From Botryllus schlosseri (taxonomy: Eukaryota), in the NCBI GenBank assembly GCA_051294905.1, contig CM119371.1, positions 28,708,001 to 28,772,000 of the forward strand: a stretch of 64,000 nt of DNA. Direction: 5' to 3'. Below are positions 2,792-53,200 of the stretch, in pieces. The notes below the pieces were generated by a model. The model was not told the origin of the DNA, made no database searches, and saw only the letters and a program-made list of their open reading frames with translations. Within the stretch, counting starts at the first letter, position 1; every line of letters starts with the position of its first letter. The position numbers and the translations under genes are program-made.

Positions 2792-4147
2792 GTCTGAGTC
2801 GTATGACTTGCTTCGAGTTATGCGCAATGACTCGAGTCCAAGTTGAGTCAATTCGCCATTTTGAGAAAACGACTCGAGAGTCAATACAAACCTGTAAAGT
2901 TTTGAGCTCACTGTTTTATTTTTAGATGGTACACGAACTCTTTTGGTTGACGTATTTTGATAAAAGTCGACTTCAATGAAGACAAATGAAAGAGTGAAGT
3001 CCTCTCCCGACGCGAAATCTGTCGTCTGGATAGTCTTACACAGACAGAATTATCCAACAGCCAGTTTAAAAGTCTATCCACACAACTTAAGAAGGCGGAA
3101 CCTATTCGAATACTCCCAAAAGGTGTAAGTACTTCGTAACTGATCACATCTGCCCACACGCAAAGCTCAAAATCTCAGATTAACTCAGTCTACAGAACTA
3201 GAGGATACTTGCACTGGCGTAATACCATACTTCCAACCCCACGTATAAATAACCAACAACGCGGTGCAAACAATCAAATTTTAACAGATCAAAATCAATA
3301 AATAACCATATACAATTCGCAAATAAGGCAAGACGCAGCAAGAAACACAGTGCTCGAACGAAAATGCAACTCAGTCAGGGCGATGAAATAGAAAAAAGTA
3401 ACAGTGGCAAACTACAGTGGCAGAAATCAAGTGTGCAGAAGATTATATTGTGATAAACCAACCGACGACCGTATAAGAAATACTAACAGGAAAAAATTGC
3501 ACAAAGAAGAACGGAAGACAGACAATACTAGAATTCATTACACAGCATAGTACAACATTAGAACACTTGACAAAAGCATCACAAGAAATATCTGGACTCA
3601 TGAAAATCCCAGAAACTCCAGATAATATACAATATATACAATTATTCATATATGTACATTGTACATACATTATCCTCCAAACAGACTATTTTCGACACTA
3701 TATCGTCACTGTGGAATCAAATTAGCTTATGTCCCTGTTACACTTGGCATGCACAACATATCGACAGGATAATATGAACTCAGACACAGTGCAATATATA
3801 GGCTATACATTATCCACCAAACAGACAGAATGGTATATTCGTATAGAAACAAACCCAAATATTTCCGTCAAGGGTAATAGTCAGCAACTAGTAGAGAAAG
3901 GGAAAGAACATTGTCAACAACAAATATCATGTTCTGACACGATTGTCGATATACCATGTTCTTTCCTATTCTCTACTAGGTGCTGACGATTACCCCTGAC
4001 CAGTGTCAGCTGAAAATATTCGGGTTTATCTCAATGTGAATGCACATCTCAATCTCATATTGAAGTTTTGTCTCTACAAATACGTGACGAAGAATTCAGC
4101 ACACCGTACCAATTGGCCTACATTTCATTTGGCACGACACCTCAATT

Positions 4148-4259
4148 TCAGACCACGCTCGGGACAGCGTAATCGGGTAATCTGATACTCAGCATCATAC
4201 AGACGACGAACGCGACAATCATGAGACGGAATTTCGACGGCGATAGCAACCCCAGGCAC
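4148..4259 (-). CDS. terminal exon 33, TM anchor plus tail (GCLGLLSPSKFRLMIVAFVVCMMLSIRLPDYAVPSVV*)
   Basis: ttccag acceptor, phase 2, TGA at 4150-4148; ORF 4148-4351. Confidence 0.8.
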
Positions 4260-7200
4260 CTGGAAGAGAAGATTCTCGATAAGCCCATTGATTTATTATT
4301 ACTATAATAATATAAATTTATACGCAGCATGACTCCACGTAATTTGGACACCGGACAATCGCTTTATTTGGCCTGAATGCTCAGGAACAGAACAAAAGTA
4401 AAACTAGCACATATTGAACTACATTTAATTGAGACAATTCTCAAAGGTTCTAATGATTCCAGTCACAATTTCCAAATCTGTGTCTTGACTCAACTTGTAC
4501 TCGGGTCATAGTCAAATTACGATATTATGAATGCCAGCCATTGTATATCAATCGAGCAGAGTTGAAAAAAAGTGGTTTGAACCGAATTGAACTAAAAACC
4601 GAACAGTGAACACAAAAAACTTGGCCTCGGACTTGACTCGGTGGCGAATTGAAAATGACTCGACACCAGTCAAAACTACAAAAGCGAGATTGACTGGCGA
4701 CTCGGGACGTTGTGACTTGGTTACAACCATGCACATCTCCGCGTAATCCAGACACAGACTCGCAATTCCTACCGTTAGGTTACGACACAAAAACAGTACT
4801 TTGTTCATTTTAATAGAAGATGTGTGATTATGGTGAAAGTGAAACAATGACGATCCATGTAGCATCAATCAATAATGAACTGTCGACTATCCGCATACTT
4901 TTGAGAAGTTAATCAGAGGTGGCAACTTCCGAAATTAGCAGATGCATCTTAACTAACACAAAACAATCAAAAATGTGTAGTGTTTGTAGAATAGGTGCAA
5001 TTTTGCCCAGTTGTCATCATAATTTTACTCATTAAATTGATTAAATAATTTTACTACTCGACGCCACTCAAAAGAATTAATAGTTGATTCAGAGCACGTC
5101 TAGCAACCTTACCCTGCTCCAAACAAGTCGAACAATTTCATCACGCCACCTCTCTGCAAAGAGAAACAAACGAATGAATGAATGAATGTGTCATGGCATG
5201 CTTGGTATCATCACCGACTTACTTCACAGTGGTAACATACCGGGACTGGGTCTGCGCAAACAGGTGAATCATCTGTCGAATCGGCTGAATGTTCCGAGTT
5301 AGGTTTCGTCTAGGTGTAAGGAAAAAATGTAGCAAACTGATGAAAATGCAAGAATCGGGATTCAGGGTTGTAATGACTCGAGTCATTATCTAAAAATTCG
5401 GAATTCGGAAAAGACTCAACTAGAGTTAATTTGTGTATTGACCCGGCTACTACTCGAGTGATTGCACATGACTCGAGACAGGTATTTCATTGTAACGAGA
5501 TAGCGTAGTGCCGTGCGTCGGAGATTATTCTCGGCTCCTCGTCTCAGGGTTGTAACCAAGTCACATGGCGCCGAGTCACAAGTCAATCAGACTTTTATAG
5601 TTTTGACTCAAGTCAAGTCGAGTCATTGTCACTTAACCACCGGGTCAAGTCCGTGTCCAAGTCATTGAGCAGAGGGTCGAGTCCGAGTCATGGTAATATG
5701 ACTTGAGTCCGAGACCAAGTCATAGTGTTGACCGCTCAGTTTCCAGTTAAAGTCTTGTGAAACCCACATTTTATAACTCTGTTTGGTCATATCGAATACT
5801 TCGCATTTAAATTATGCCAATTTTCCTCACTTTTAGCAGTTTCTGGTCGCATTTTCAAGTACCAGTACCAATAGACGAAATCCGAAGAGTGTGGGTACTT
5901 CACTTCTCTTCAAAATTACAATGAAATGTCAGTCTTGGCCGTCTGAGTCTCGAGTCATATGACTTGGTGTGACTCATGCGGACTCATTACAACCCTGCCT
6001 CGGCCCCCATGTCGCCAAAAGAGCACACAAAAAAAGAAAAGAGCAAGCAATATAGTATCACAACAACTCACTGTACCTGGGAGCCACCGCCACCGATGAC
6101 GTCTAGTATCTTCTCACAGGCGGAGCATGAGCATTTCATCGCGATAAAGAAAATTTGCCGAAGCTTCCATTTCGCGTCCGTGCATTTCTTCTCCCAAGAT
6201 TCGCTCTCATTCGTCAGAGTCTAAACGGCACAGATTAAAACCAATAAGGATTTCAAAAATGGCTTCAATGGTTTCGGTTGTATTTGAATTTGGCGTTGGA
6301 CACAAAATTTTCAATTTTTTTCAATTTACATACGACTGTTCCGATTGAATATCATACCATGTCGAAATCCAAAACTCGGGTTTTGACATGATATGATATT
6401 AAATCTGTTAATCTCTGGTAAACAGGCGAGAAAAATGCTACATCACAATAAGATTATTGTGGTATCTTTTTGATCGTGCCATTTCATTGCATTTGGTGAC
6501 AATGGCGTGGGTTGATCACGACATGCTTCATATGCTACGATGCGACCAATTGATGTTTCAAGGTTTTTACAGTGGAAAATGGCATAGAAGCTCTAATTTT
6601 TGTGGAAAAATAAACTCTTACTGGCAAGGAATGCATAATTTCAGTACTCGACTCAAAACTTCTCTCGCTACCCGACTCAAATCATCAGAATACTCAAATC
6701 ATTATGCTCAGTCTGATTTCGGGTGTGCGGCGCATTCATCTCACAAAGCCACAAAGTAGGTTCGAGAAAGAGGGCAGGGTCAGTTATCGACCAAGCTCTA
6801 ATCTCGAATCCACCGGCGTACCTTGACCAGGTCTCGCGACTTGCTTTCCTGCCCCGCGGCTCCTACGCATTTTTCCGCGTCCCGCAGCTTGAAGGACAGC
6901 GACAGCGCGCTCTCCCACATTTTCACGGCCTCCTGAGAGCCGTGGCCCGGTTCCTTGATGGCCTGCAGCACGCCACGGAAGTTCTGGAAATTAAATGTGA
7001 GCTAGTAGTGTCTTGAGTGCGGCTTGAAGTACGTAGGAAATAATTTATGTTCGTGCATTTACTTTGGCCTCATTTGACTCTTGTTTGTATAAGACAGGGC
7101 CGGCCTACCCGTGGCCCGCGGGCCACATGTGGCCCACGAGAAGGTTTCGAGTGGCCCGCGAGGTAATTTCCGAAATTAGTAATATAATACAAAATGGATT

Positions 7201-13200: not shown

Positions 13201-16200
13201 GAACTTCAGGTCAAATCGAACATGCTCTCAGAGCTATACTATGTTACTTCACGACGTTCTGAATGAGTTTAAAATTTGATATTTGAGAGTTATTTTATTT
13301 TATCAACGGTCAAGCCTTCAACATATTGCATCTTGAAATTTTATTATAAAATTGCAAAATACCTCGCGGACCGGCTGGAAAGTCGTTGCGGACCGGCGGT
13401 CGAGAACCACTGTTCTATGCTACACATTCTGATTCACACAGGACTGCGCCTACCTCGAAATCTTGTACATTCCCTCTGTGAAACTGGTCGAAATTAGTTC
13501 CGTGCGAACTCATAAGACAGAGTGATTCTGGAAATAGACATATTTGATGATGATAAATTGACTGCAGCTACGACAGAAGCGAATTGAATATGAATACTTC
13601 GAAAGCTCATCTGACCATTCTTCTTTCATCAAAACGGTAGGCCTACTTTTTGATAAAAATATACGCACATATCCCAGCTTAGTACCGTTGATGTACCACA
13701 TTGTGTCCGCACGTATGTATTAGCACACACGTCTTGTGAGTTGTTGGAGTGATAGGGATTAGGCTAGTCGATGCAGCTGTTTTTTGTATTTTAGTTTGGT
13801 CATTTATTGCGGTATTTAACCTATGAATAAATGCAAAGTTGCACATGATCAAATTTCAAATTGAAAGTATATGACATTTTCAAATTTGAGGTAATGAAAT
13901 TTATGCATAGCTATCATCAGGGTGAACTGACACTATATTTTGACAATCTGTTCAAGATGCCTTCAGATACCCACCAACATCATACCGGATTTCTTCCAAC
14001 TTGTCTCTGTCTGTGCAACACCACTCTACCAGTCTTGTACAAAATTCAATCAGTTTTAATGGTGTTAATGTTTGGAATAAGCTGCCATCTACTCTCTGGG
14101 ATTTAGACTCTTGCGCTTTTAAAAAACAATGTTTGCATTCTCTTATCTCTAACTACCGCTAAATTGTATTTGCATTGAATTTCCAATTGGTCCATGTTTT
14201 TCTTTTCGTTCGTAAATTTTATTTTTAGTTATCGGCTGTGAAAATTGCTCCTGTGCTGGGTGGCTCGGCTCTGAAGACTTTGTCAAATCGAGCCTCCCGT
14301 CTACCTTGCATGTCGGATTTCACTGTTACATTTTTGTAGTGTAATGTTGATATGTAATGTATACGAATAAAGATTCTCTTTCTCTCATTTATTGCAACGT
14401 CAATTTTTGGTTCAACCACGCTAACAAACATCTAAAACTCATGGGCAGGTGCCAGTTTGTTATCTGATCAAATATTAAACACAATAATGTCACTCACCGA
14501 CAAGACGAGATTGTGACTTCAACGATATCTAAATAACAAATGTCAAAGTCAGTACGAAAATAATATCCCGGTATTGGCATGTAAGAGAACATAATATAGA
14601 ATCGAAGAAGATATCGAGTTTTTCAAGTCCCTGTGAATAACAGCATATCCTGGCAGAAGGTATGGAGCAAGGAGTAGGCACAGCACTCCAAACAGCACTA
14701 CCATTGCCAAAAGGTAAGGTAAATCACACAGGAATGGTGTTTCAAACGAAAACATCACATTAATACTAGCCATATATAGAAAGAGATACAGCAGGTTCTT
14801 ACCGCGATTTTTGATTCCGCATCAACTCTGCAAACTGTAACAAGAAGTCGTGCAGTTCAATCACTGCTAAACTGCAATTAACTGTCCGACAATTTACGTT
14901 TCTCAAATGTGTGATTGAGTCAAAATCTTTGAGAACAACAGGTTTCTTCTATCATATGCTAGCAGACTTGGTACTCAATTACGTGTGATCTCATAGATTT
15001 CACCTTAAGTACCGTTCAAGTAGTGTAAAAAAGTTGATTTGATCTAGGGGTCGCATACTTTTAGAAGGTAATCGAAGATTTCTACTTCTGAAATTTCAAA
15101 GCGGATCTTTGCGAATAGTGACTATTATTATAATGACTATTGACACTACAATAGGTAAAATTTTAGAAACCAAATTCAGTTACAATTGAATAGTATATTC
15201 ATGTGGAAATGAACCCGAATATTATCGGATGACACACGTCAGGGGTAATCGTCAGCAACTAGTAGAGAATTGGACAGAACATTTGTACATCAACAATCGT
15301 ATCACGAAATATGACGTCATAGGAATGAAATTTCGAACAATCAGGGCATAGAGAGCGCTTAAGCTCAATATAACTATTTTTAGATGATACATGAATTTCT
15401 TCTGCCGGCAGAGGCTTGGTTGGCGTATTTTGATATACAGCTACCATACCAGGAAAAGATTGAAATTCTACTACTTGTTGGTAGTGGGAATGGTAGTATA
15501 ATCTCAGTACTCGAACAAATAAATTCTCACTACCCGACTCATTACAATTAACGCTCTATTCGGATTACATTACTCTAATAATTGAGCCCAGCCCTAATCT
15601 TGTGTATGTCAATCAAAGGTACATCATAGTTTTATCAAGCTATCCGGGTTTCACACTACATTCAATCCAACTTTGAGTACATCTCAAACGTGACGTTTTC
15701 CATTTCCATGCCAAGCATAGGCGTGGACATCACTAATCACCATGGACCTGGGTATAATTTCACAATATCACCTCGTCAACTACATCTCCATAGTAAACAT
15801 AAAAGGATTACCTGATTTCAGAGAATCAAACTGGTCAAATCGATTGCTCCACCTGTAAGCAGAACACTTTTACAATCAGGGGCAATATTCCGCATCACAG
15901 GGTGGAACTGTCACAGATATTCTTCACCGGTATGACACATAATATTCAACTATCAACAGTTTCAAGCCCTATGAAAAGCATATTCTAGTGTTTTATCCAG
16001 AAAAATTTGAGAAACATAAGTATGAGGTTTAAATCCTGCTGCAACCATACTGAGACGGCTGCGTTTCAACGGTAAAGGCTGGCAATTTCTTTATCGACAT
16101 TGTGCAGAAAGGTATGGCGAATGCACCAAAAACAACTGTTTTCAGTCGAAAAATTAATATTTTGTGTCATTTCATTGAAAGTATTTCGGATCTGCACAAA

Positions 16201-22200: not shown

Positions 22201-25200
22201 CGGAATGTCAAGGACGGGCTGTCGAGCATGAAATGGGAGGGGTTAATACCCCAAAACTCTCCCCCCGACTACGCTACTGTTGGTAGTGATGACTCTGGGC
22301 CCTAGCAATGGCTGCAAGAACATCACACAACAGGTCGCACGACTCACGACACATGTTTTCCAGCTGTTGTTTGGCAAGGTTCCGAGTCACAAGCCAATCA
22401 CACTCTTATAATTTTGACTCGAGTCAAGTCGAATCACTTTCAAGTCTGAGTCCAAGTCAGCGAGCAGAGGGTCGAGTCCGAGTCATGGTGTTTTGACTCG
22501 AGTCAGAGTCCGAGTCATTATGTTCAACGTTCAGTTTTCAGTTCAATCCACTTTCAACTCTGTAGTTATTTTCCCCAATCCTAACAGTTTCTGGCCCTAT
22601 TTTCCAAGTATCAGGACTGATAGACGAAATACCAATAATGTTGTAACTTTCAATACAACATCCATTGTAAAAGAATATTTATTTAACTCGAAGACTTTTT
22701 GGGTGCCTCTTTTCAAGAGTTAATCACAGGTATGTTGGACGTACATCTCAAAGATTGTTTGAGCGTATTAAGCAGCATATCCCCAAATTGATTCGGTCAA
22801 AAACATGCGCAAATACTCGCACGGAGCTTGCACGTCAGTGCAAATTGGCTGCCAAAACAGAAGACTGCTATGACGATTACCAAGCATATGCTTCGTCAAT
22901 TGGTCAGCATCTGAGTGAAAACCTCGCCTGCGCACAGCACTATAATGACAATATGTTCACTGTCAGTGCGCGTGGCAGATCTTTGTTTCATTTAAAAGTG
23001 TTGGAGTCTACTCCTATTCAGTTGAACAAGCCTATTTTATGCAGACAAAAAGATTTCCTCTGTAACCTACAAATTTCTCATTAGTGAGCGTTGTTTCGTG
23101 CGCATAACTGTTTATTTACAAATTGCGTTGCTACTATAGTACCGTATGTCCGTATACTTCTAGTTAGTTATTGTTGCCATTGGTACAATGCGAATTTCAT
23201 CGTCAGTATTTTGATTGTTGCGTCATACTTTGCCTTTTTGGTTTTGCTTTTAAATCTGTTTAAATCCCTTCAGTGTGCCGTTCTGTTTAAATCCCTTCAG
23301 TGTGCCGTTAACTCGTGATAAGAGGCACCCGAAAAGTCTTCGAGTTCAATAAATATTCTTTTACAATTGATGTTGTATTGGAAGCTATATTCTGTACCAC
23401 GAACCAGCTATTTTTAATGTGGTAGGTAACTCTACTATTATTCAAAGTTACAATGAAATGTCCGTCTTGGTCGTCCTAGTCTTGAGTAATATGATTATTA
23501 TTAAAACAATATCAATCGTAAGGCTAGTACCGTGCAACCGCGCAAGCTCAGCTTCAGCGCCGTTCTTCAGCTTAGCAAATTCATCTTGACGACTGCTCAA
23601 CTGCGCCAGTTCATCTTGCGCCAAATTCCATTTTTCGTAGACCTGCTGCAACTGTCGTACCAATCGAAGCACAACACAAAAGTTAGTCAGCAATCAGCAG
23701 GGATGCCCGAGGTAAATAACACCAGTTCTACATCAAAACAAAGATAACTTGCTAGTTATTCGACCATACCAATTTTATTCATACAATTGAATAGTGTATT
23801 CATATTGAAATAAACACAAATATTTTCGACTGACACTCGTCAGGGGTAATCGTCAGCAACTAGTAGAGAATTGGAAAGAACATTGTATATCAAGAATCGT
23901 ATCACAAAATATGACGTCACCAGCATGAAATTTCAAACGAGAGAGCGTTCAATGTACTATTTTCAGGTGATACACGAACTCCTTTTGTTGACGGAGTTTG
24001 GGTTGGTGTATTTTGATAAAAGTCGACTCCAAGGCACCCAAATGGAAGTGTGAACGGCCCCTCCCAACGGCGCGAAATCTGTCGTTGGGAGACGCGATTA
24101 CCCCTGACGAGTGTCAGCTGAAAATATTCGGGATCATTTCAATATGAATATACTATTGAATGGTATATTGAAGTTCTGTACCTCCAAGAAGCTCACGAAT
24201 TTTATTGCACAAATCTATAATTCTTGTATATAAATCAAAACAAGGAGCATATTATTTTCAGCACTACAAAAATAATCTCTCATCCCTCGACGCAAATCAT
24301 TAGAATTAATACTCGATTCAGATTCGAGTACTCAAATCACTGAGCACATCCCAATTAGTCAGTCAAGCAAAGTAATTTTATGACCTTAAATTTCTACTAA
24401 CACTGGAAGTACTGTTGTAAATCGCTAATTCTAGTTGTATTCCAATATAAATTTACAGTGTCACTCCTACTTGAGCACAAACGCTGACCAGCTTTGAGCA
24501 CATCTGACAAGTAATAAACAGTTCAACCATAACTGTGTATGTTGTAACCAAGTTGCGTTCAGCCTCACCTCATCCTCCCACGCTTCGATGACGAGCTTCT
24601 TCGTTTCATAGGACACTTTCAACGAGTGGTTATCGCATTTAAGTTGTCTCACTTCAGCTTAAATTTGAATGGAGATCGTCAGCGCAATAACAAGAACCAC
24701 AACGGAGGGGTGGTGCAAGACTTGAACAGCCTTACAAGGCTATTTCTGTACCTTCCTTATCTAGCCGCATTGGGGCTCTTCAAAAATCGAAACGATGTTC
24801 ACCAAATTTGGTTCAATTCCAGCCAGTGGAAGCGGAGTTATCGCCGTCGAAAAATTTGGATTATGAATAAAATAGTATTTACGGTGACCAATTCTTCAAT
24901 TATTTATTATAGCGGTGCCCACCGTAAATACTATTTTATTCAAATCCAAATTTTTCGACGGCAATAACTCCGCTTGTACTGGTTGGAATTCATCCAAATT
25001 TGGTGAACATCGTTTCTGTAGACAACCTAACACTTTCATGGGGTGAACAGAAAATTTTCAAATTTTTTGTTACTTATTTTTATATAATAAATAGAACCTT
25101 TCTTCTCCTATAGCAATGCGGCTACTGGTTGGAATTGAACCAAATTTGGTATGTAGGGTTAAATTAGGTAACCTAACAATTGTTTTTCAAGTAGCCAGTA

Positions 25201-28200
25201 CGATTTGAGAAAAAAAGTCATTTTTGAAGAGCCCTAAGCCGCATATGCACATGATGTACATGGTGACTCGACTTGACTCGAGTCAAAACTATAAAAGTGA
25301 GATTGACTTGTGACGTGGTTACAACCATGATACAATGTCCTAACCTGTCCTACGTAAACAAAGTCGCAAGGTTCCGAGTCACGGATCGTACAATTATAGT
25401 TTTGACAACAGTTAACTATTCGCTGACGATTACCCCCGACGAGTGTCAGTAGAAAATATTCGGGTTTATTTAACATGAATGCACTATTCAATTGTCTATT
25501 GAAGTTGTGCACCTCCAGGAAGCTCTTCAAAGTGTGAAAAGTAGTATCATCACAATAGGGACTGTGATTGCAATATGACTTGTCCTTCTGAACGCGAGCT
25601 TGAATCGTAACATGGCTCATTATTTTCAAAATTTAGACCCAAATTGCAAATCAACATTTTGCAAACTTGAGACTCGAATTGAAAGATGAACCATGCCGGA
25701 ATCATGACATGTATTGCAATTTACGAATTGTACACCGGCATATTTTTATTCTGTGGCACAGTCTACCAAGCCAATCCAAAAACAAATACAGCCGTCATGT
25801 AAGAGTACCTTGGGCAAGTTCAACAGCTTCATCCATGCCGCTTAGTTTTTCTTCCAGTTTCTCCACCTGTTCGGCAATCAGTCAAGACGATTAGTAAACC
25901 AGTAACAACCCATTTCAATGCAGACTTTCTTACACTACGAAGATCAAATCAATATTTAAGAAACAATGCTAATGTCAGAACGAAAAATGCATCAGTGATT
26001 TCAGTGAAGTAACAACAACTGCTTCACTGAGAATAACGATATGTTTAACATAGCTCAGGTGTCCAGATGAAAGGTTTCATTCCTGCCCAAAAACAGTAAA
26101 GGGTTGAAAGGCTGTTGTAATAAACCCTGCGGAGTTTTGAAAATGCGCCTCAAGCTAGATGCCACAACTAGAAAACCCTGTTCCACATTGAAGTTCATGC
26201 GTAAAGTCGGTTTGGTTTGATCCCGATAAAATAAAATTGAAAAAATTTCTTCAGAATTGAATCTACTTGGTTGGTTGCAGATTTTTAAATTTCTAGTTCT
26301 AGTTTGGAAAGGTCTGTCTGGTCGTAACCATTAGTAAGCATCATATTGAAGACACGAACAAGCGACTTCCGACAAACAAAATTCACAAACCTCTTCACAC
26401 TTTGCGCTATAAGCGGCGAGGTACAGCATGCAGTCAATCGTCTGTGATTCAGAGTCTCGCGTTTCCACCGAGACTGTTTGCGTCTCCGACTCGCACTGCG
26501 ATAGGTAGACGTAAGCGTATCAGTTCCAAAATATCACAACGGCATACTAGTTGGATGGTTCAGGAAATTGTCAGTCGTATATCAACAGAAAGTACGTATC
26601 CTCATTCATCAAGTAGGTTTTCTAGATTATAGAAAACACCGAGCCATTACTAGACATAGGCACATATTCTAATTGCATTGATCGAAGTCGAGCAGTTGAG
26701 AGACCATCTTTACCAGTGCTGATATTATACATCCGTTGCCCTCGATAGTTAAATCATCAACAAGAAACGCAGTTGACACAGCATTGTACAAAAATTAGAA
26801 TAATCGATGCGAACAGATGCCCCAAGCTCAAAGTTCTATTTTTAGAATTGGTGTATAATCTAAAAATACTGCATTGAGTTCAAGTTAAATCTTTGCCTAA
26901 ATTATTCGAATTTTCATGCCGGTGACGTCACATTTTGTGATACTATTGTTGATATACAAAGTTATTTCCAATTCTCTACTAGTTGCTCACGATCACCCCT
27001 GAGGAGTGTCAGTCGAAAATAGTTGGATCAATGTAAATATATTATTGGATAGTATACTCATATTGAAATGAACCCGAATATTTTCGGCTGACACTTGTCA
27101 GGGGTTATCATGCGCAACTCGTAGAGAATTGGAAAGAAAATTGTATATCAGCAAAACAATCATATCACAAAATGTGACGTCACCGGCATGAAATTTCGAA
27201 TAATCGGTGTTGCTCCCTCCTAGGGTTATGCAAGTGTTCTAATAAATCCATTCAATTGTATATGATGTTCTGTACCTCTAAGAAGTTGTAAATATATCAT
27301 TAAATCACCATCACACTCACGCAACACAATAGACATATTCGAAGAGCTTCTTGGAGGTAGAGAACTTCAATATACAATTGAATAGTATATTCATATTGAA
27401 ATGAACCCGAATGTTTTCGGCTGACACTCGTCAGGGACAATCGTCAGTAACTAGTAGAGAATTGGAAAGAACATTGTACATCAACAATCGTATCACAAAA
27501 TATGACGTCACCAACATGGAATTTCGTATAAAAGAGCGTTCAATGTACCATTTTTAGATGGTACACGAACTCCTTTTGTGTATACAGAAACAAGTATCTA
27601 CACAGAGCCACTAACCTCATGTAATTCCGTGCCATTCGTGTAAGAAAAAGAGAGATCGCCGGTCTGCGTATCGGACTCTCGCATTCCCACGGAAACAGTC
27701 TGCATCTCCGCCTCACACTGGGATTGATAAAAGCGCGCTTGACAGTTTCATAATGACACAGCGGTACACTGATCTCATAGTTTAATATTTATTTTTGCAG
27801 TTTTATTGCTTATATTCATTGTTAGACCGCTCCAGTTTTTTCGTCTGTTACTTTTCGTTCAGTAGTCTAGTTCTATTTATGGTTGCGCATTTTGAAAATC
27901 CAGAATTTGTATACGTCTACTACCGTTTTCATTGTGTCGCACACTCAAATGTCAGACAATAGCATGTCAAGATTCCTATTCAGGGTCTTTTCACAGCAAA
28001 ATTGTCAACATCCAACATATTTTCAAACAGTTGGCCGCAAATCAAGCGTATATGTGACGCTAGCAACGTAAAAACAAGCAACTAACGATAAACGAAAGCC
28101 ACAAACCTCGAGCGTTTTCACAGGATTTTTGCCGGACGCCGTAACGGTTTGTGTCTCTGCCTCGCGTACGTCGAACGAAGCATCTCCGTTGAAAGTAACA

Positions 28201-31200
28201 CGGTTCTCTGAAAGATATGTTCATTGTTTAGTCGACTTCATCATTTCATAAATATATATAATATATATATTATATATGGGCTAGGCCATGGTAGTCTAAC
28301 TAACAGCCAACTTCTATACATCATAAGCGCAATTTCGTTAACAGGAGGAAGCTTATCTGATACCTGTATTATTATTGGCATTTCCGCTTGTACTTAAACC
28401 TTCATAAATTGATGCTATCTTGCTAAATTTTCAAAGCCCCTCTATTTTTAGGGTGGAGTGAAAAATTTTGAATTTTGAATCAATTTCTATAACAATTTTG
28501 ATATCGTGCACCCTCTAGTGGTCGTGTCATTTCACAGAATGAGCCAAAAATAGGTAATTTCGCTATATATTGATAACCGCTGACACTAGAAAGCTGATTT
28601 CGGTCTTAAAAGATGCAGAAGCAACAAGTTTCTATCTCACTTCCACAGAAATTTGTCTTGAAAATATAAACAGAAAAAAATTATAAGCGAATTTTTAATT
28701 TTTACACCGTTTTTAGGTAAAATTAGGCACTGAAACAGTGGGTAAGACGCCAAATGCGTGTAGTAATTGATTTTATGACTCACAACTCCATATTGAAAGT
28801 ATAGACATTGCAAATCTGTATTGAAAGTCACACCAAGTCACCCTCCTTTTTTCACAGGATACACGCATGGTTGTATTCATTGAAAATGTCACCGTATGCA
28901 TAGTCAGGATGACAATTTGGCGCAGATTTTTATGAGAATTAAACTTTTAAGCATACAATTTATACGTTCACATTGAAATAAACCTGTATATATTCTTCTG
29001 ACTCTGACACTCGTCAGGTGTAATAGTCATCAACTAATTGAGAATTGAGAAAATCATTGGATATCAACAAACGTATCACCGAATATTATGTCACCGGCAT
29101 GAAAATTCGAATAATGAAGTCGAACAGATGGCTTTAGACTCAATGTACCGTTTTTGGATTATACAAGAGCTCATTCTGTTGTCTGATTTTATTTCAACAT
29201 GAATTCGTCATTCAATAGTATATTGGAGTTTTGTAACCCTATCCCCAAGAGTATCCAAAAACCTTTCAGCAGAATCGCAAAGTAAAAATTGAAATCTCGT
29301 GGGATCCATCAGCCAAGTAAAATTATAACTCGAGATCTCTAGCAAGCCTACCGTTGTCGAAAAGTATTTTCCTGGGAGACGACGCAGCCAGGAATGTGAA
29401 AGACGGCAGCTTGTTCTTGTGCACTTTGACGATCGGAGAATCGAAATTGCCCGTCCTGCGAGTGGCGGTGCCACAAATGGGCGAGTCGTAGCAGTTACGT
29501 TCCAAATTCTGCGGCAGGAAGAAAATAGGAAGTGGATGTTTTATATTTTTGTCGATGATTTGCGGCATATACACAGACTCATGATATACATACACTTGAT
29601 CTGTGCATATGCATACCATGAGTGCATGAGGTAGGCTACATATGCAGCTGGACAAGGAAGGTACAGATATAGCCTTGTAAGGCTTTTTAAGTCTTGCACC
29701 ACCCATCCCAGGTATCTGCATGCTAAGCATGACAATTCAAAATCACTCAAAATTCCGTAATCAAAACGAGTCCGGTCAGCATATTAGGGTTTCTACTGAA
29801 TCAATACTAGTCAGCCCGCAAGATTATCGGACCACAATCTGACATACCGGTATCGAGTTCGCCTACCGACACATGCAGTATTCATTTTCACCCCGTCCTT
29901 TTATGCTACCCTTTCTTAAATCCAGTGCGCATGTCTCTTATTTACACGCTGCAGGCCAGGGTGGGTGTCTGATTAAAAGACTACTCCAATTCGTTTTGGC
30001 TCCCACTTATATTTTCATTATATCGCAATCTTGTGACGAATTGATTTGATAAAAATTTCAATAAAATACTGATCTGTATTAGATATTTCCAAGTCTGAAT
30101 CCAGAGTCGAAATGGATTAAGTCATACTTGCTCGAAAAGACATTTAAAAATTCAAAATTACTAGAAATTACGTAGTTCAATAGAGATCTGGGTTTACGAA
30201 AATGGTAAATCCCGATCCGGCCGCCATTAGGAGGTCGGATTTCATATATTTAAACCAGAATTCTGAATTTATTCCCCACCTTGTGACCCACTCGAAAAAA
30301 ACATTGACCTATAGCTAATTAGCTAGTTCTGAGAGTTTTGAGTCTGATTTAAAGTGGAATGTCCCAACTAAATGGGCTGGTAGAATAGAAATTGTTCTAG
30401 CTTTTCGTAGAAGATTAAAAACTTTGCGCATTACCACACTGCTACCATTCTAGTTAAATTCACCTCGTCGGCAGTGGTCAATTCCTGTTCGATACTCTGC
30501 TTTACAGTACTGGAGTCGTTAAAGCTTCTGGTCCTGAAAATTTGAAGAGATTCTCAACACAGCAGCCTAAGTACAGTCGTTGCAATACCATAATACAGGT
30601 GATCAAAGTAGTCACTATCTTAGAGTAGATATAGAGCAGGGGTCACCAACTGAAAATGGGTCCCAAACCACTTTTTGAATTTCGTAGTGGCCGCTGGCCG
30701 CATAAATTCAATATCGATATATAATAGGCAACCACGTCTTAAAACTCTACGACAGCACAACGCTGTGCTACCTAACACACACTCAGGGAATACAAATTCA
30801 ACAAAAAATCATCATCAATTTCATTCTATTTTGAACTCTTGAGATGTGCACGATTCCCGGAAACGCTTTTCAGCGACTAAGGATTCGATATCGGGGCTAG
30901 CGAGAGAGGTTACTAGCTGAAAGACCATCTCCACGTAAAGCTTGATCTTGCGGGGAAGCCCTAAGACAATGGTTCTCAAACTTTTTTAGACACGCCCCCC
31001 TTTATGATAATGAAAAAAAAATTCGCGCCCCCCTAATCGTCATATCTCAAAATGCTACCAGAATGCTAGCAATCCCAACGGATAGTTTGATGGCATTGAA
31101 TAAGGTTATAACTTTTGATTGGAGAATACTTTGTTATGAATTCCGGACAATACACTGAGCAACAACGATGAATTTGAGCAACACTGAGCAACAAACTCGT

Positions 31201-34200
31201 TCAGTTGACTGCAGCTCTGCGCCCCTTCAGTTGCTTCCATGCCCCCACAAGGGGGGGGGGCACCCCCCAGATTGAGAACCACTGCCCTAAGCCGTTTTCT
31301 AAGCGTCTCGGTCTTAGCAGTGTTTGGGTCATTGCACGTCACGGCAATATGCTTATTGATATCAGCTGACTCTCCCTCGGTGGCAAGCTGTTGCCATCGC
31401 CAAAGCCATTTTAGTTAGCGACGGATAGTGATGTTGGGCACAGGAGAATATCTTATTTTGAAACAGCAACAGCAATATGTTGAAACTGTCGTCAAATTCA
31501 GCATTCTAAAATGGTTTTCTTAGATTTCTTCCAAAATCTCAAGTCAAGTAGCGGGCCGCAAAATATGACCGCGTGTTGCTGACCTCTGATATAGAGTGTC
31601 TAGAAGTAGGCAGAGATGGTTAAAGCAACCATCGTTGGCACCAAGTACAACTACAAGTAGCAATTTCCAAGTAAAAAATGACACTAAGTAGTTTACTCCT
31701 AGATTCCAAAAAATTTCAAGTAGAAGTGGAAGTACTCTATAATGTAGGTTTTCAAGAAAGAGCACATGGAACTATAAACGGACTACATATCAGAAAGGAG
31801 ATCGTTAAACTGAGATTTTTGAAGGCTCAACACTCTGCAAAATTTGTTTTCAAATTCTACCAATCCCCAAGCAAAATAAGGTTCAGAACAATTGACACAG
31901 AGCACATTACTTTGACAAGGTTAGCGCTACGCATAGAGCTTGCAAAATTGTAGCTTTAATAAGTAATCGCATCATCTCGTAACAAACTGTAGTATGTGCA
32001 TAACACTTACATGGAATACTCCAATTGCTGAGCGTGAAGCTGTTCGATTAGCCTCTTCTTTTCCTCGTTGATGGTCTGACAAGAAGCAAAGTTTCATCAG
32101 CGACACAACGACATTATTTCTATGCATCGTGACATAGGGATCAGGAATAATTTCGTAACGAGGTGGCTATCAGAGCCCTACCGATATCAAAATTTCACAA
32201 TATTATTCGTTTGGGCCAATATTTGTTGTCGAGAATTTCACAATATTTCCACTAAATCCAATTCAGTTGCAGGAACAATAGCAAGCCTATTATTATGCCT
32301 ACAAAAATTAGCTTCCGATAGTCCATTCCCTATTCAATTACTATCGGAATGTTGCGGCCATCCATCGTAGAATGCGGATTCTTTTACGGTTAGCTTACCT
32401 CGTACATACTTTCGAAATGATTCAACCTATCTTCTAGATCGGCGACTTGTTTGGTTTTCTGCAAGGAGAAACAGCAACCCTTTAGTGAACTATATAATCA
32501 CCGACAAAGTGATCAAACATAATCTGAATATATCATCTCTTTATATAAGACCAGAGTTGGCTGCAGCAGTCGGCGCTGGTATTCAAGTACCGTAAATTTC
32601 AATTCAATTACAATTACATGTAGCTATTTCCAAGACACATCAAAACTACTCCAAGTCGAAGAAGAAATTTGCCATCCCTGGCATGAAATCAGACTTGGTT
32701 AAACTAGTAAGCATTGGTACTCAAGTAGATGTGAAAGTAATGCCATAAATTTCTACTCGAAAACAATTAGGCTATAAGCGGACATTTCAAAGACATTGTC
32801 AAAACTACTTCAAATGGAAGGAGAAACTGATAGGCCAGAATACCACACCAGTACCGTACCTAGTTTCTAAAAGCAGATCTGTTCGAGTGATCAGATTTTT
32901 TTGAGCAGGTTATCAAGATTGCAATTTTCGCGACTAACACAAAACGAATATGACACTACAAGTAGGAGCAATATTGGGAAATGCATTTAGTTACCATGAT
33001 GCAAGGTATATTTCTTGCAGTTTTGATCACAATTTCACTCGGAAAAAGTGTCACAAACTCCACTACATTCCACTTTACAAAATCAAAATTGTAGAAAGCA
33101 AGTTGGATTGCCTAAAAAACTGTTGAAGTAGAATTGGGGGTATTCTAAAAACATATCAAATTAAGAAAGTATTGAAGTTCTGCACCTCCAAGAAGCTCAT
33201 TAAGAAAGTAGTACAAGCAGGAAAACCTTGCTTCAACACTACAGTAAAAGTACAAATCGTCACTAAAGTGTGCGGTTCAAACTCGAGTGATAACAGTGCG
33301 GTAGCCTAGTTGTATCAAAACTCACCAAGGCACATGCGTCCCTTTCGGTCTCCCATCTCAAATGCGTATCTTCGAATTTGTCCTTGACAAGAAACACATC
33401 GCCACTTAAACGTCAGGCATTACCGAAGATTTGCGAAGAGATTAAATCCCTGACTTTTTAACCCAAAATTCGAGCGTGAGCCTAACTCTGACTAAGATTT
33501 TGTCAAATCTCACTGTATTCATTACACCTTTTTTAACCGTAGCAAAATAACAGAAATATACAATCAAATTATGACATCAAAACGGACTTCACAGAACAGG
33601 TAAGGCACCTCACACAAGTGCTATAGTTGATTTGAGCTAAGCTTTTGCTACTAAGATTATAAAGATAACAAATTCAGAGTTATATCAAGCCCAGGACATT
33701 GTACTAACAACGGTTAAGCTATGACCTCGAATACAGCAATGAGTGATCACATAATTTATGTGAATACAAAAAATAAATACCTGTAATATCTGGTTGTCCG
33801 TCTGTATATTCGCACACATATCTCTTTCTTTCTCGAGTTGTGTGCACACTATGTCGTACTGTAATTCCAAACAGAATAATTTAATATTGAAGGCATATCA
33901 CAGTTTCACTTCATGCTTCGCAATTTTAATTAGAATCTATACCTTGCATGAGTGGGCTACTATGTAATCGAACAATTTGAGCATGAATTAGGATTAGATC
34001 AATATAGAATTGAAGATTTTCGACCGGTCTGAGATTACAATTTTTCTAAGACAACCTTTGTTTGTCCATAAATTATCAGAAAGACAGTTTTCGACTCTTT
34101 TCATTTGTTTGCATTGGAGCCGACATCAATCAAAATACAGCAACCTAGTCTGTCCCAACAGAAAGAGTTTGTGCGCTATCTAAAAACAGTACATTTCATG

Positions 34201-37200
34201 CCGGTGAATTCATATTTGGTGATACGATTGTTAAAGGGGCTCTGCACTCTGAAAATGATGTGGTCTCAAATTGATGGGCATTGAAAGAAAAATTTTGGTC
34301 GCAGCCGTTTTCTTCAGAACGCCACCGTAATGGAGCTGCAATGTATTGAAATTTCCATAGGGGCAAAACGCTCCAGCAGTCACGCAGAGATCAAACTTTA
34401 CATAGTTATATATAGTGTATAGGCCGATGTTATGAAGGGAATGGAATACACTAGTCCCGATTTTGACATAAATCTCCTGACTGGACATCTTCCGTTGAAT
34501 GCGGTATCTAAACCACCTTGGCATGTACGACATATATCCTTCATAACATCGGCTGATAACTATATACAGTTAGATCTCTGCATGACTGCTGGAGGGTTTT
34601 GCCCCTATGGAAATTTCAATACATTGCAGCTCCATTACCGTGGCGCTCTGAAGAAAACGGCAGCAGCCAAAATTTTTCTTTCGTTTTGCCCTTCAATTTG
34701 AGACCACATCATTTTCAGAGTGCAGTGCCCATTTAATATACAATATTCTTTTCAATTCCGTACTAGTTGCTGACTCGACCAGAGCAGCGTCAACCAAAAA
34801 TATGAATATATCATTCAATTACACTGACTTTGTTCTGAATCTCCGACAGCGTGATCCTGTAATCGTCAGCCTCTTCCTTCGCAACTTTCTCCCGATACGA
34901 CGCACTCTCCACGGCCTTCTGCAGTCTGTGATTGGCAGTTTGAATTTCGTCTTTTTCCGAGAGCAGCTCCTGGATGCCGGGCTTCACATCTTGAATTCTG
35001 AAGAACATTACAGATTACAACTGCAAAAGTCACTGCCGTATGCCATGGGGCTGGGAGTGGGGGTCACACACTAATACCGAGAATGCTGTTACTGTGAATG
35101 TGTACATCAAGAGAATGGACAATTTAGGGCTGTTCAGAATAACTATTCTTTTCAAATTTTACTGGCCACTTGACAAAATTGTTAGATAGCTTAAAAAACG
35201 CGGCACACCAGTTTTGGTTCGATTCCAACCTGTAGAAGCATTGATTTACGAGAGAGAAGTTTTGGATTTAATAAAAGTTTTTTCAAGGTAAAAAAATGTC
35301 AAAATTTTGATTTTTTAGGTAAAAATCTTCCGTTTTTAGGTTAAAAAAACGCCCAACTTATTATAGACCTACCCACCGTAAATACTCTTTTTTTCAAATC
35401 GAAAATTCTCTACTGCAATAACTTCCACTGGTTGGAATTGCGCTAAATCTCATAATCATCTGTTTTTCATACAACCTAACAATTACGTGTCCCGCATGTC
35501 TATGTGCAAGGTGCGATGGCACACGCAGTAGAATTACCTTCTGAGGTCTTTTTCCAGCGCGGCAATCCTCTGCTTTTGCAGGTCATATTCCTCGTCACCC
35601 ACCTCGAGCTGGCGCCTCACGTCTGAGACTTCACGTTTCAGACCCGTGTTGACGCTGATCAGATTCTTGTTCCTCAGAAGTAGCTCGCCAACATCGCTAA
35701 GGAAAGGACAAACAGCTTCTTGAAGATACACAACTTCAATATACAATAACATATCTGCGAGGTCGTGATCAGTCCTCAGCATTGCCATAAAATGCAATAA
35801 GTAGCAGGGTTGTCATGACTCGACTCGGGTCCGAATCTAGTCACGATTTTCTGATGCCTCGAGTCATTTTCTCAAAATAGGGAATAACTCGACTCGATTA
35901 AATCTGTATATTGACTCGACTTGGATTCGAGTCATTGCAGATGACTCGAATGAAGTCACATGACTCGAGACTCAGACGGCCAAGAACAACATTTCATTGT
36001 AATTTCGAAGAATAGTAACGTAACCACCCTATTGGTGTTTCGTCTATTGGTACTAGTACTTGAGACCGGAAACTGGAAAAACTTAGGAAAATTAGTATCT
36101 TATAATGCGAACTATTTGATATCACTAAACAGAGTTATAAAAGTGGGTTCAACAAGACTTGACCTGGATACTGAGCAGTCAACACAATGACTTGGACTCG
36201 AGTCATAATACCATGGTAGAACCACTGCTCGATGACTTGGACACGACTCGGTGGTGAATTGAAAATGACTCGAATCAAAACTATAAAAGTGAGATTGACT
36301 TGTGACTCAGGAGACTTGTGACTAGGTCGCAACCCTGATAGGTAGGCCTAGTAGGTACGGTCTACAAAATACCAAATAATCTTTAATACGATGGCCTTCA
36401 TATTCACTGTGGTGAACGAGCGATACTCGACTCGAAGTCTAATACTCGATTCAGAATCAAATGACTCACACTGCACTTAGTTTTCCATGGCCCTAGCTAG
36501 TTGTTACTACATGCAATTAAATAGGTATAGACGAAAACACACCAAATTCTCTTTATGGGGCATGCAACTTTCGTACCGCCATAGAGATAGTAAAGAAATA
36601 TTGAGCGATGCTCGAATACCCGCATAGCCTACTCGATTCAGAATCGCATCACTGATACGCTCGATTTCACTCAGCTCTAAACATCACCTATAACACATGC
36701 GATGAAACAGGACAAGCCTCAAAACTCAACTGTTCCATGATGGACATGGTCGAAATATCCCCACCGCACCCCTCCAGCTGGCTGCTCGTATTCAAGAAAG
36801 ATTCGTCTGGAAAGAATATTCAAAGAGATTGTGAAAAGCAAGGACTATGGCTCCGCAATTTTACCGGATCAGACCGATTCCATCCATTTTGGATTGCTTA
36901 CTTTGAAACATGATCAATGATCATACTAGTTAGAAACCAACACACAGAGGTGGTCAGTAACGAGTCAGTACAGTACTACAGTGCTAATTTTTTTGAGTAC
37001 TCCTTTCGGTTTCGTTTAATCTTTTCTGAGTCTAGTTGCACCAGTTAAGTAGTTGTTTTAGACTTCTGGCTGTTCTGAGGAACTGCTAAAAGCATGTGAC
37101 CCCAAATCTTCACTTTGAAACCAGACTAACAACCAATAAAACCCAATCAAAGCTTACCAGATGAAGGAATATCGCCAGCATTCAAGCTATCCCCAAATGA

Positions 37201-40426: not shown

Positions 40427-41192
40427 CATTAGTCATACATTCGTTAGTAGCAGGCATACACCAAAACTTAGCAAGCCAAGTCACATAATTTTGTTGCATA
40501 CTTATGTTCTCATGACACTAATCGCTTACTAGGCAGCATACGTAGCGGCCTACGTCTTCAGATGAACTTCACACATGCATAGTGCATACGGAATATTCAG
40601 AGCGCGCGTACGTTCGTAAATAAACAGAGACATTGCCAGTGAAGGTCAAATGAATCTCGTGAATTCGACCTAGCATACAAGGCTTTCTCCGAGTCTAAAT
40701 TGTAGGTCTTTTCTTTTCCTGGCGATACTTAATTACCTAATACTCAATCTTTGCTTGGCAGTCGTTTCAATGCAATATATATAGTATGTGATGATGAGCT
40801 ATGCACCTTGCACCTGCGAGACGTTGCTGCATATCCAATCTATGGTCGACTAGATTCATGATTCATACGGGGTAATTCGGAATTTTATTCATGATGAGAT
40901 CGACCCACAATCCCACATACTTAATTCCAGCAGCGCCTGTATAATCGCATCGGTAATTCATGCTGTGTAACCGAACGGATATTCCGCTTATAGTGCAGTG
41001 AGTATAATTACAGACTTATAGAGACTTTATTGTATTAATTTGATTAGGCGAATGTTGGTCGGAAATAGTGTGAGAAGCAAAGACGAACGTTGACTGATGA
41101 TTGCAGTCAATTATATCCGAATACACGGTAATAGCCGGTAATAACCTGTTTATCATGCGCTCGTCCACTGCCATCTTACATATGGAATAACA

Positions 41193-42014
41193 GTGTGGGG
41201 ATGCTCTTACAAGAAGCATATCAACAAGCTCCAGGTATTACAAAACAAAGCCAATAGGATTATATCTAATATACCTGCACGTAGCAGCGTCAGTCCTGAA
41301 TTTAGAAAATTGGGCATTCTCAAGGTCTCGGATTTGTATGAATTTGAAATTGTAAAAATCATGAAACAATATAATGAAAGAACATTACCTGAATATTTCG
41401 ACAACTTTTTTCAATGCCCCAATTCAATTAACCATTATAACACAAGATTCTCACAGAATCAGTCCCTATTTGTTAAATTGAATTCATCAAGACTGTCAAG
41501 AAATTCCCTATCTTATATAGGTGTGAAATTTTGGAACAATGTACCAACTTTGTACCGTACTCTTCCTTATCATACATTTAAAGCTCGCTATTGCAAATTT
41601 ATATTATCCAAGTACTGAGAAGAACATATCTCATGACCACAGCGATGTTGTTTGTTGTTTTGATTCATTTAATATGCTACAATAATATTACCACTGTGTA
41701 CATGGGTCAAATTGTTATTTTCTGATCACACTGTTAACTATGGTAACCGCCCTTCACTAGTGTTGCTGTCTTTTATTTACTTTTGTTTATTTCGTTACTC
41801 TTTGCGGTGCTACTTGACTGAGAGAAGAAATTGATTCATATTATAATCAATACTGCCAATATGCTTGGGTGACTCCGGCCTAGAAGACTTCGGTCATATC
41901 GGGTCTCCCAGTCTATACCGTGTAAATTATAGTTAGGAAGATTTTAAAAATGTATACTATTGGACGTGAATGTTTGTGGACATTGCCTTTACTATATTTC
42001 ATGGTTGACGAATA

Positions 42015-43555: not shown

Positions 43556-43560
43556 TTGAC

Positions 43561-52177: not shown

Positions 52178-52879
52178 GATGCAATATTGATTGTCTGATA
52201 CATTACGCAGAGGGGATAATGGTTATAATGCGTAACCATACTCATATATTTACCCGTGTTTTACCTGCGTGTTGGTTTATTTCGTTTTCTTGGTCGTTAA
52301 TTTTAGTGTAAAAGTAGTTTATTCGTAAAGTATATCACCATAATTCAGACTGTACAAACTACCAATTTAGTTAGTTGAAGGTCAACCAACTAACGGTTTC
52401 TTGAGTAGTTCTAGTTGCTGATTTTGAAAATTGATTAGTTCTAATTCTAGTCGCACATTTGAAAAAAATAATAGTGGCCGAACATCTAGAAAACACGTGT
52501 CGTCGTTTCATGCGAATTGAGATGCCGGTGTTCTATTGAATGATGTATGTTGTACTGTACAGTACAGCCATAGGCGCCGAGTTACGGGGTGTTATGACGT
52601 CGCGTTACATTTTGCACACATTGGTTTCGTGTTTGACCCCTGACCCCCCCCCCCCCCGGGCTACGCGCCTGAGTAAATGAATAGTATATAATAGAGAATT
52701 GTCTGATGTAATACTACACATGGAATATGGTATCTTGTGATCGTTTACTGTTCATCATCTCTCTGTTTGTCTTAGTAATAATTTTGCAATTGCTTGCTGC
52801 GGTACAATACGATTGGTTTTTCTGATACAGTAAGCCTTTCCACATAGGTTTTATGACATTGTTGTATTGATGTAATGAT

Positions 52880-53200
52880 CGCACGGAGCTCGCACGTCAG
52901 TGCAAATTGGCTACAAAAACAGACTGCTATGATGATTACCAAGCATATATGCTTCGTCAATCGGTCAGCATCTGAGCGAAAATCTTGCCTGTGCACAGCA
53001 CTATGATGACAATATGTTCACTGTCATTGCGCGTGGTAGGTCTGTGTTTCATTTAAAAGTGTTGGAGTCTACTATTATTCAGTTGAGCAAACCTATTTTA
53101 TGCAGACAGAAAGATTTCCTCTATAACCTACAAACTTCTCATAAGTGCGTGTTGTTCCGTGCGTGTAATTGTTTATTTACAAATTGTGCTGCTACTATAG
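52880..53200 (+). mobile_element. Penelope-like GIY-YIG 3' fragment, paralog of 22815-23140
   Basis: Highly similar DNA; MFTVIARGRSVFHLKVLESTIIQLSKPILCRQK. Confidence 0.8.

Follow-up and report, generated by a model that had tools for sequence, protein, structure and literature searches.

What kind of element underlies a short repeat that recurs in a 64,000-nucleotide stretch of the Botryllus schlosseri genome (contig CM119371.1, positions 28,708,001 to 28,772,000; in the following, "the window"), and how does the ribozyme motif it carries relate to known hammerheads? A preliminary description, made from the letters alone, had reported about ten copies of a roughly 200-bp repeat with minimal hammerhead motifs, likened to retrozymes and to pseudo-LTRs as found in Penelope-like elements (PLEs). 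The nine motif positions given there are correct to within a few bases; the core starts of the nine hammerhead-like copies, here termed family 1, lie at 3996(+), 15242(−), 23843(−), 24104(+), 25436(+), 26999(+), 27101(−), 27434(−), and 29017(−). The earlier consensus equals the majority sequence of 11 aligned pieces, in which the type I core elements CUGANGA, GAAA, and UH follow each other in this order. Allowing for at most one mismatch, the core pattern occurs five times in the window; 60 simulated, dinucleotide-matched windows serving as chance control contained it 0.15 times on average and never more than 2 times.

With high probability, the repeat belongs to a protein-coding retrotransposon of the Penelope/Poseidon type, whose pseudo-LTR it forms and which is present here only as old, 5′-truncated insertions. 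Tblastn and profile matches place ORF ends at both sides of the repeat, the order in family 1 being the end of a GIY-YIG ORF, a UTR of ~90 nt, the hammerhead, and then the ORF start. Both termini of a presumed RT-GIY-YIG ORF are contained in the repeat, whose copies are therefore truncated members of a coding family; the earlier view of a non-autonomous, retrozyme-like repeat without an attached ORF is not borne out. The window holds only the two family-1 ORF ends, whose closest relatives (87–89%) are fragments of 236–238 amino acids, and a full-length family-1 member was not found among the relatives (best match 56% identical to P0017). Related proteins carry a reverse transcriptase domain (Pfam RVT_1, E 1.6e-9); their GIY-YIG domain falls short of the Pfam cut-off (E 0.0068), with GIY-YIG motifs being seen. 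The CX2-5CxxC linker preceding the endonuclease is present in 0 of 40 relatives, including P0017 and P0018. Its absence marks Penelope/Poseidon (PMC8557442), and an assignment to the Neptune clade was rejected on the basis of the missing zinc-finger linker. Counted from the predicted cut site, the 3′ ends of family 1 fall near +38 and +67, in agreement with loose RNA ends at 27341 and 27371, and many copies possess an inverted 5′ piece together with a tail of ~30 nt; an inverted 5′ piece and a tail of 30–40 nt are known PLE traits (PMC8557442; PMC11167929). A Pfam search of six window ORFs gave no useful name for any of them, and the ORF at 25234–25632(−) was rejected as a GIY-YIG remnant, given that a tblastn match is absent there.

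The most complete family-1 pseudo-LTR (27336..27589, minus strand) comprises the last 13 ORF codons, the UTR, the hammerhead, and the first 20 ORF codons, with profile matches at both the C-terminal (E 0.012) and the N-terminal side (E 6.9e-6); its ORF start occupies 27335..27394(−), the ATG at 27394 lying 15 nt past the predicted cut. The longest ORF remnant is contained in the copy at 23780..24095(−), which runs from a GIY-YIG end through the UTR and a hammerhead with core 23843 and disrupted stem I to the ORF start; the 48 C-terminal GIY-YIG residues at 24095–23952 (profile E 2.3e-20) are 89% identical to P0017 and 87% to P0018. The inverted 5′ piece of this insertion (24094..24195, plus strand; ATG 24144) contributes a second hammerhead and ORF start, with an intact core at 24104 and the 5′ strand of the pseudoknot described below missing. 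Further members are the piece at 3929..4079(+) (core 3996, G8 lost), the copy at 15176..15467(−), which includes an ORF end and lacks A9 and A14 in its core (15242), the piece at 25399..25531(+) (core 25436, U4 and C11.1 lost; ORF start 25475), and a degenerate copy at 28952..29189(−) (core 29017, small loop II duplication). The copy at 26845..27040(+), with an intact core at 26999 and disrupted stems I and III, adjoins the one at 27036..27207(−) (core 27101, G8 lost) tail to tail. Short inverted pieces accompany two of these copies: an ORF start at 27250..27285(+), adjoining the 27036–27207 copy, and a piece at 29188..29251(+), which starts 4 nt past the predicted cut site. Two extra degenerate pieces, 3827..3922(−), the inverted partner of the 3929 piece with its ribozyme centre deleted, and the strongly decayed 34734..34845(+), complete the list together with an ORF end and partial UTR without ribozyme at 34099..34236(+) (sequence and profile matches), a GIY-YIG C-terminus alone at 2905..3060(−) (tblastn and profile matches), an isolated "tail" fragment at 33169..33200(+) covering +36 to +67 from the cut site, and an isolated ORF-start/tail fragment at 35711..35752(−).

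All three inverted pairs reported previously exist and are PLE-like, two of them being divergent (3827–4079, 23780–24195) and one convergent (26845–27207); two further divergent pairs lie at 27036–27285 and 28952–29251. As dimer partners such pairs had to be rejected because their members lie on opposite strands, so that one transcript contains only one of the two in sense. Family-1 copies are mutually 68–91% alike, and none is complete. The whole catalytic core is kept in four of the nine, the core plus at least three stem I pairs in two, and every ribozyme element in none; most likely, the window copies are inactive relics. Most of the decayed transposon ends in the window are apparently intronic.

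For a non-autonomous non-LTR retrozyme, or a SINE-like family spreading as small circular RNAs, speak the shortness and dispersal of the copies, their type I hammerhead, and their abundance in RNA reads, and animal retrozymes are argued to stem from PLE pseudo-LTRs (bioRxiv 10.64898/2026.07.22.740005). However, head-to-tail arrays are absent from the window (spacings between copies of 333–11371 nt), 97–98% of the bulk RNA reads continue into unrelated sequence, and the 5′ ends vary continuously, reaching up to 48 codons into the ORF. The unit has ORF ends attached rather than being non-coding. Among the joints listed (15 of 27), no small-circle RNA joint was seen. We regard a retrozyme origin as improbable.

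The predicted ribozyme of the repeat combines a hammerhead core and a stem I of 4–5 bp with a 6-nt palindrome that stands in for helix III, so that the earlier designation as a minimal type I hammerhead of a PLE with palindromic stem III is supported by core, palindrome, and pseudo-LTR position. Helix II is reduced to 1 bp, and loop II can pair over 6 bp with a strand located 7–9 nt upstream of the core, 5′ of stem I. In the most complete copy, the hammerhead with intact core spans 27405..27448(−). There, the pseudoknot strands (5′ strand 27448–27443, 3′ strand 27425–27420) form 5/6 pairs; stem I pairs 27438–27435 with 27408–27405; the core at 27434–27428 is followed by the 1-bp helix II (27427/27419) and GAAA (27418–27415); and the predicted cut falls between 27409 and 27408. 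The palindrome of this copy is broken at one base, the helix III site being palindromic in six of the nine window copies, and the RNA majority letters at 27413, 27437, 27438, and 27448 agree with the family-1 pattern.

A second PLE family at 22716..23420(+) contains ~120 GIY-YIG codons (83% identical to P0001), a UTR, a hammerhead, and an ORF start remnant near 23390. Its degenerate hammerhead (23301–23346) likewise displays a 1-bp helix II and the pseudoknot (5/6 pairs); neither the pseudoknot nor this family had been recognised in the preliminary description. The inverted 5′ piece of the same insertion (22644..22723, minus strand) has a core reading as a U3-A8 variant with G12 lost, and a second family-2 ORF end at 52874..53201(+) ends before the ribozyme.

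Conservation was assessed on alignment A4, consisting of 14 hand-picked rows (six from the window, eight from related loci), from which the copies at 24104 (5′ strand truncated), 26999, 15242, and 29017 were omitted, as were 72 of the 80 related PLE loci, mostly repeats of one family. On A4, the whole structure is paired in 94.9% of the cells, with two-sided changes in nine of 14 pairs, a result not reached in any of 500 shuffles. The pseudoknot alone is 94% paired, compared with 21–46% in slid controls, and covaries across six element families in five of its six pairs (0/500 shuffles). Taking one row per family, 35 of 36 pseudoknot pairs form, which is matched by only one of 720 loop-to-flank assignments. 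Stem I is 94.5% paired with two-sided changes in three of four pairs, the inner pair of the palindrome is changed on both sides in 6/14 rows, and the core columns are mostly invariant. Position 10.1-11.1 is G-C in 11, G-U in two, and unpaired in one of the 14 rows, and all 14 have the 1-bp helix II, with position 9 directly followed by 10.1 and no extra base inserted. Among the 80 related loci, which are redundant and mostly of one family, the motif is found in 45, to which L004 was added on visual inspection. In the related family that is most common, U3 faces G8 instead of the C3-G8 pair. Related loci on viral contigs (0 confirmed from one candidate) and on genome contigs (alignment A3; 0 from 30) were not obtained.

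That the motif is a chance look-alike within an ordinary repeat, never having been a ribozyme, might be suggested by its broken core in most copies and by the missing Rfam match: the gathering-threshold search of the whole window returned no hammerhead, with models that perhaps do not cover minimal forms, and neither did a search of bases 1–36000 at E<=10. This is nevertheless scarcely credible, as the core is kept across six families with compensated stem changes and the motif sits where PLEs are known to carry hammerheads (PMC4209133). More weight has to be given to the possibility, still doubtful in our judgement, that the 6-bp pairing is real and yet no activating pseudoknot, forming instead a switch or plain hairpin by which the ribozyme is kept inactive within the 5′ leader, or serving the promoter or the reverse transcriptase. 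In minimum-energy folds, obtained with a program that does not handle pseudoknots, the 6-bp helix appears without stem I in three of six families. The same folds yield the stem I hammerhead frame for only two of six, and a competing hairpin of core and loop II is possible in family 1, both of which count against the favoured reading. Furthermore, a Poseidon hammerhead is dispensable for insertion in vitro and leaves no RNA ends at the cut (PMC11167929), and likewise no pile-up of read starts or ends was seen here at the predicted cut in the three informative RNA runs out of four, from libraries that are weak in this respect. Against such a role, stem I and the palindrome covary as well, the distance between flank and core is kept within 7–9 nt, and fast cleavage depends on a like pseudoknot in a type II hammerhead whose stem II is 1 bp long (PMC3088659).

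Returning to an activating pseudoknot, a tentative mechanism can be outlined. The upstream pseudo-LTR of a tandem parent element would act as promoter, whereby the ribozyme would form the very 5′ end of the element RNA; in several families, a TATA-like box precedes the pseudoknot strand by 31–35 nt (seen in only 7/12 rows). The pseudoknot may substitute for helix II as well as for the contact that loops I and II usually make, and two ribozymes could join via the palindrome, cutting slowly or with protein help, so that the element RNA would be trimmed just before the AUG. With uncut or re-ligated RNA as template, reverse transcription would begin within the ORF start; this would explain why every insertion spans the cut site. 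A bolder version, which we consider possible though rather unlikely, holds that this Poseidon lineage possesses a pseudoknot-activated hammerhead with 1-bp helix II at the transcription start, efficient once partnered, removing a capped leader of ~40 nt and leaving an uncapped RNA with the AUG 4–53 nt from its new end. If true, cleavage would act as a switch, uncut RNA being a template for reverse transcription and cut RNA a message that is circularised or translated cap-independently.

As far as the window is concerned, the outcome is ordinary, namely decayed transposon ends. Hammerheads at PLE ends have been known since 2014; their role is hard to assign because the tested examples cut poorly, and the PLE ribozymes assayed so far are sluggish. 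A covarying natural pseudoknot would provide a tertiary contact to a class of ribozymes which reviews describe as lacking one; the putative activating strand would be missing from constructs cut back to stem I, and the six natural sequence solutions are ready-made mutants for testing the pairing.

Among known systems, the closest are the minimal hammerheads (min-HHR) which metazoan PLEs carry at the pseudo-LTR position (Cervera and de la Pena 2014, PMC4209133). Shared are the type I topology, the catalytic core, G10.1-C11.1, a short stem I, the helix III palindrome, the pseudo-LTR position, mostly single decayed copies, and occasional U3 variants. The 1-bp stem II, which had been taken for the known PLE pattern, does not belong to this list: in all 56 rows of Fig. 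S3 of that source, helix II has at least 3 bp (3–8 bp), and A9 is usually followed by an extra base, whereas neither is found in our repeat. Moreover, the published forms are said to lack tertiary contacts (PMC4209133, PMC6155905, PMC7761336), unlike the loop II/5′-flank pairing predicted here. Judged by its sequence, the combination of 1-bp helix II and pseudoknot is a departure from the Cervera 2014 consensus and is treated as a variant standing outside it. The literature searched contains no description of such a pseudoknot for PLEs; Luense, Weinberg and Breaker 2017 may already show the variant.

Pseudoknots have been reported for all three hammerhead types (Perreault 2011, PMC3088659), and the same study presents a 1-bp stem II backed by a six-pair pseudoknot. 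That ribozyme is of type II, comes from a metagenome, and had a stable stem III in the assay (kobs >1.2 per min), while the predicted ribozyme described here is of type I, resides in an animal retrotransposon, and has no helix III as a monomer. The hammerheads of chrysoviruses and fusariviruses (PMC13725137) are likewise of type I with a helix II of 0–2 bp just upstream of an ORF, in one case cutting 7 nt before the start codon; they have a long helix III, are said to lack loop–loop contacts, and showed low rates. For these viruses, cleavage-linked cap-independent translation has been demonstrated, whereas for our repeat it is a conjecture. Non-LTR retrozymes (bioRxiv 10.64898/2026.07.22.740005; PMC7761336) are likewise short animal repeats akin to PLE ends that carry a hammerhead of type I, but are tandem and non-coding, in contrast to the dispersed copies with both ORF termini seen here. 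Finally, the Anolis Poseidon element PAc (Frangieh et al. 2024, PMC11167929) agrees in the clade, as judged by motif, in the ribozyme at the junction of pseudo-LTR and ORF, in two 3′ boundaries ~30 nt apart inside the ORF start, and in the absence of RNA ends at the cut; it differs in being cut 26 nt downstream of its start codon, instead of upstream of the AUG, and in that its reverse transcription starts near +111–118 of the ORF, compared with 3′ ends ~24 and 53 nt into the ORF here.

The dispersed repeat (family 1) carries a hammerhead motif at all nine positions named in the preliminary description, with cores starting at 3996(+), 15242(-), 23843(-), 24104(+), 25436(+), 26999(+), 27101(-), 27434(-) and 29017(-) of a window that is eukaryotic-looking, repeat-rich and of ~40% GC. 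Allowing at most one mismatch, the core pattern occurs five times in the window, against a mean of 0.15 and a maximum of 2 in 60 simulated, dinucleotide-matched windows. Pairwise identity among eight copies amounts to 68–91% (over ~120 nt); the whole catalytic core is intact in four of the nine copies, the core together with a stem I of at least three pairs in two, and every element in none. Rfam returned no hammerhead match, neither at the gathering threshold for the window nor at E ≤ 10 for bases 1–36000. At 3709(-), the two-mismatch scan alone picked up a loose string that resembles a hammerhead, its stem I having 3 pairs; it may be a chance occurrence.

With an ORF remnant at 22671–23084 as starting point, 15 longer relatives were retrieved, eight of them with a precomputed reverse transcriptase (RT) domain, and these match the window directly upstream of the family-1 repeat (24086–23952, 15467–15369, 34099–34194 and 3060–2917). 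A profile of 34 C-termini matched copy 23843 with E 2.3e-20, and two database fragments match the 48-residue ORF remnant of this copy at 89% and 87% identity. On the other side, an ATG lies 15 nt downstream of the predicted cleavage site, and a profile built from 11 full-length N-termini placed the three best-preserved copies at the top of 3459 translated segments (E 6.9e-6, 5.8e-5 and 1.4e-4). Given ORF remnants on both sides of the ribozyme, the family-1 unit is thus ordered ORF end, UTR, hammerhead, ORF start, and the earlier statement that no RT ORF is attached gives way to these C- and N-terminal profile matches, by which both ORF ends adjoin the repeat. A full-length family-1 member was not found, the best candidate being 56% identical to the database protein P0017. 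The CX2-5CxxC linker occurs in none of 40 relatives; its absence is described as a mark of Penelope/Poseidon (PMC8557442). The repeat is a real feature and most likely consists of pseudo-LTRs of the Penelope/Poseidon type, now decayed, that bear a minimal type I hammerhead, an already known kind. The preliminary assignment to the minimal type I hammerhead of Penelope-like elements (PLEs) stands, while its retrozyme part is not supported: non-LTR retrozymes are tandem and non-coding (bioRxiv 10.64898/2026.07.22.740005), and family 1 is neither.

The final six bases of loop II in family 1 are complementary to six bases ending 8 nt upstream of the core. Equivalent complementarity, in different letters, is present in family 2, a second PLE family at 22644–23420 that is organized likewise and has a degenerate ribozyme too. 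Since this pairing crosses stem I, it would be a true pseudoknot provided that the two helices form together. Among 80 loci obtained by scanning for related elements, 45, mostly of one family, share the hammerhead design; L004, a related PLE locus outside the window like the other L-numbered loci, was added to the design-bearing loci by eye. On an alignment of 14 hand-picked rows (six from the window, eight from related loci), the pairing is 94% satisfied, with two-sided changes in five of six pairs; its covariation score was matched by none of 500 shuffles, and slid controls were 21–46% paired. The full model, which adds stem I, the palindrome and the G-C pair to the pseudoknot, is 94.9% satisfied on this alignment, with covariation in 9 of 14 pairs. 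Taking a single row from each of six families (the two window families, L003, L004, L005 and L007), 35 of 36 pseudoknot pairs form, equalled by one of 720 reassignments. The families behind all these figures are mutually related, drawn from few assemblies and compared by a structure initially read from family 1. Minimum-energy folding recovered stem I in two of the six families only, and loop II of family 1 was also able to pair with the core itself. In the general hammerhead numbering, L003-type loci, the commonest related family, carry a U at position 3 of the core, facing G8; elsewhere, C3-G8 is kept in L002, L021 and L057, and U3-A8 is found in L001.

Seven of 12 rows have a TATA-like box 31–35 nt ahead of the pseudoknot strand, with the box present in family 1, L001, L002, L003 and L005 and absent from family 2, L004 and L007. 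By this spacing, transcription would start a few bases upstream of the ribozyme; PLE promoters are described as sitting in the pseudo-LTR (PMC6765202). Where a row agrees in frame with the ORF start, its first in-frame AUG follows 4–53 nt past the predicted cut. The pseudo-LTR of L001 and L003-type loci also contains repeated CCAAT boxes (3' UTR), which precede the TATA-like box.

Relative to the predicted cut, the 5' ends of family 1 are spread from ~-60 to -277 and the 3' ends are grouped at ~+38 and ~+67; both 3' clusters are matched by loose ends of RNA reads, at 27371 and 27341. Four divergent pairs consist of a truncated copy and an inverted piece, and two insertions are joined at one convergent junction at ~27040. 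Both inverted 5' pieces and a tail of 30–40 nt have been described for PLEs (PMC8557442), the tail being attributed to two internal RT start sites within the ORF start (PMC11167929). Because insertions extend across the cut site, the RNA template was presumably uncut or re-ligated there. At least 7 of 27 opposite-strand read joints (7 among the 15 listed), in rows possibly derived from few loci, have one side within ~7 nt of the predicted cut (27401–27412), and the inverted piece at 29188 begins 4 nt past it; this may hint that cut RNA ends sometimes set inversion points.

RNA reads were aligned at 80% likeness to 27300–27620, containing the best copy (core 27434(-)), in four runs, the three informative ones giving 4008, 3762 and 13368 reads and the fourth none. 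Most are <95% alike to this copy, both orientations are present and 97–98% of bulk reads continue into unlike sequence, so their sources are many copies scattered within other transcripts. Their majority letters at 27413, 27437, 27438 and 27448 restore palindrome, stem I and pseudoknot. The three informative runs contained neither a pile-up of read starts or ends at the best copy nor a dip in depth at the predicted cut, in which family 1 resembles an Anolis element, likewise with RNA lacking ends gathered at the cut site (PMC11167929).

Among other features of the window, short minus-strand open segments with many E, K, Q and R residues (~23450–35810), some of them bordered by splice-like sequence (near 35780, 35010, 26500, 24650 and 23650), resemble exons of a host gene for a coiled-coil protein, which would place the intervening PLE copies in introns. 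A hairpin-like inverted repeat at 24789–25016, with a sub-threshold Rfam match (RF02625, 32.7 versus 65.3 bits), is probably a MITE. A foldback or MITE-like inverted repeat at 9480–11122 has 648-nt arms, 95% complementary and 347 nt apart, and arms of ~700 nt at 2085–2785 and 7119–7827 are 85–89% complementary and ~4.3 kb apart. ORFs of ~157 aa at 41145–41618(+) and 43090–43560(-) had no useful Pfam match; we take them to resemble the C-terminal end of an L2/CR1-type LINE protein. Six ~155-nt units form a tandem array at 57945–58812.

As defined by Cervera and de la Pena in 2014 (PMC4209133), PLE minimal hammerheads have a long helix II and one additional base following A9 and show little activity as dimers, and helix II has at least 3 bp in all 56 rows of their Fig. 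S3; in contrast, the design in the window and related loci combines a 1-bp helix II with the predicted pseudoknot. Reviews present these hammerheads as lacking tertiary contacts (PMC6155905, PMC7761336), and no report of this pseudoknot in PLE hammerheads was found among the papers examined. A fast type II ribozyme combines a 1-bp stem II with a six-pair pseudoknot (PMC3088659), a stem I–II contact can take helix form (PMC10085705), and type I forms with a short helix II that precede viral ORFs are described as slow and tied to cap-independent translation (PMC13725137). Among PLE hammerheads, it is the putative, covarying pseudoknot of loop II with the 5' flank that would set family 1 apart as new.
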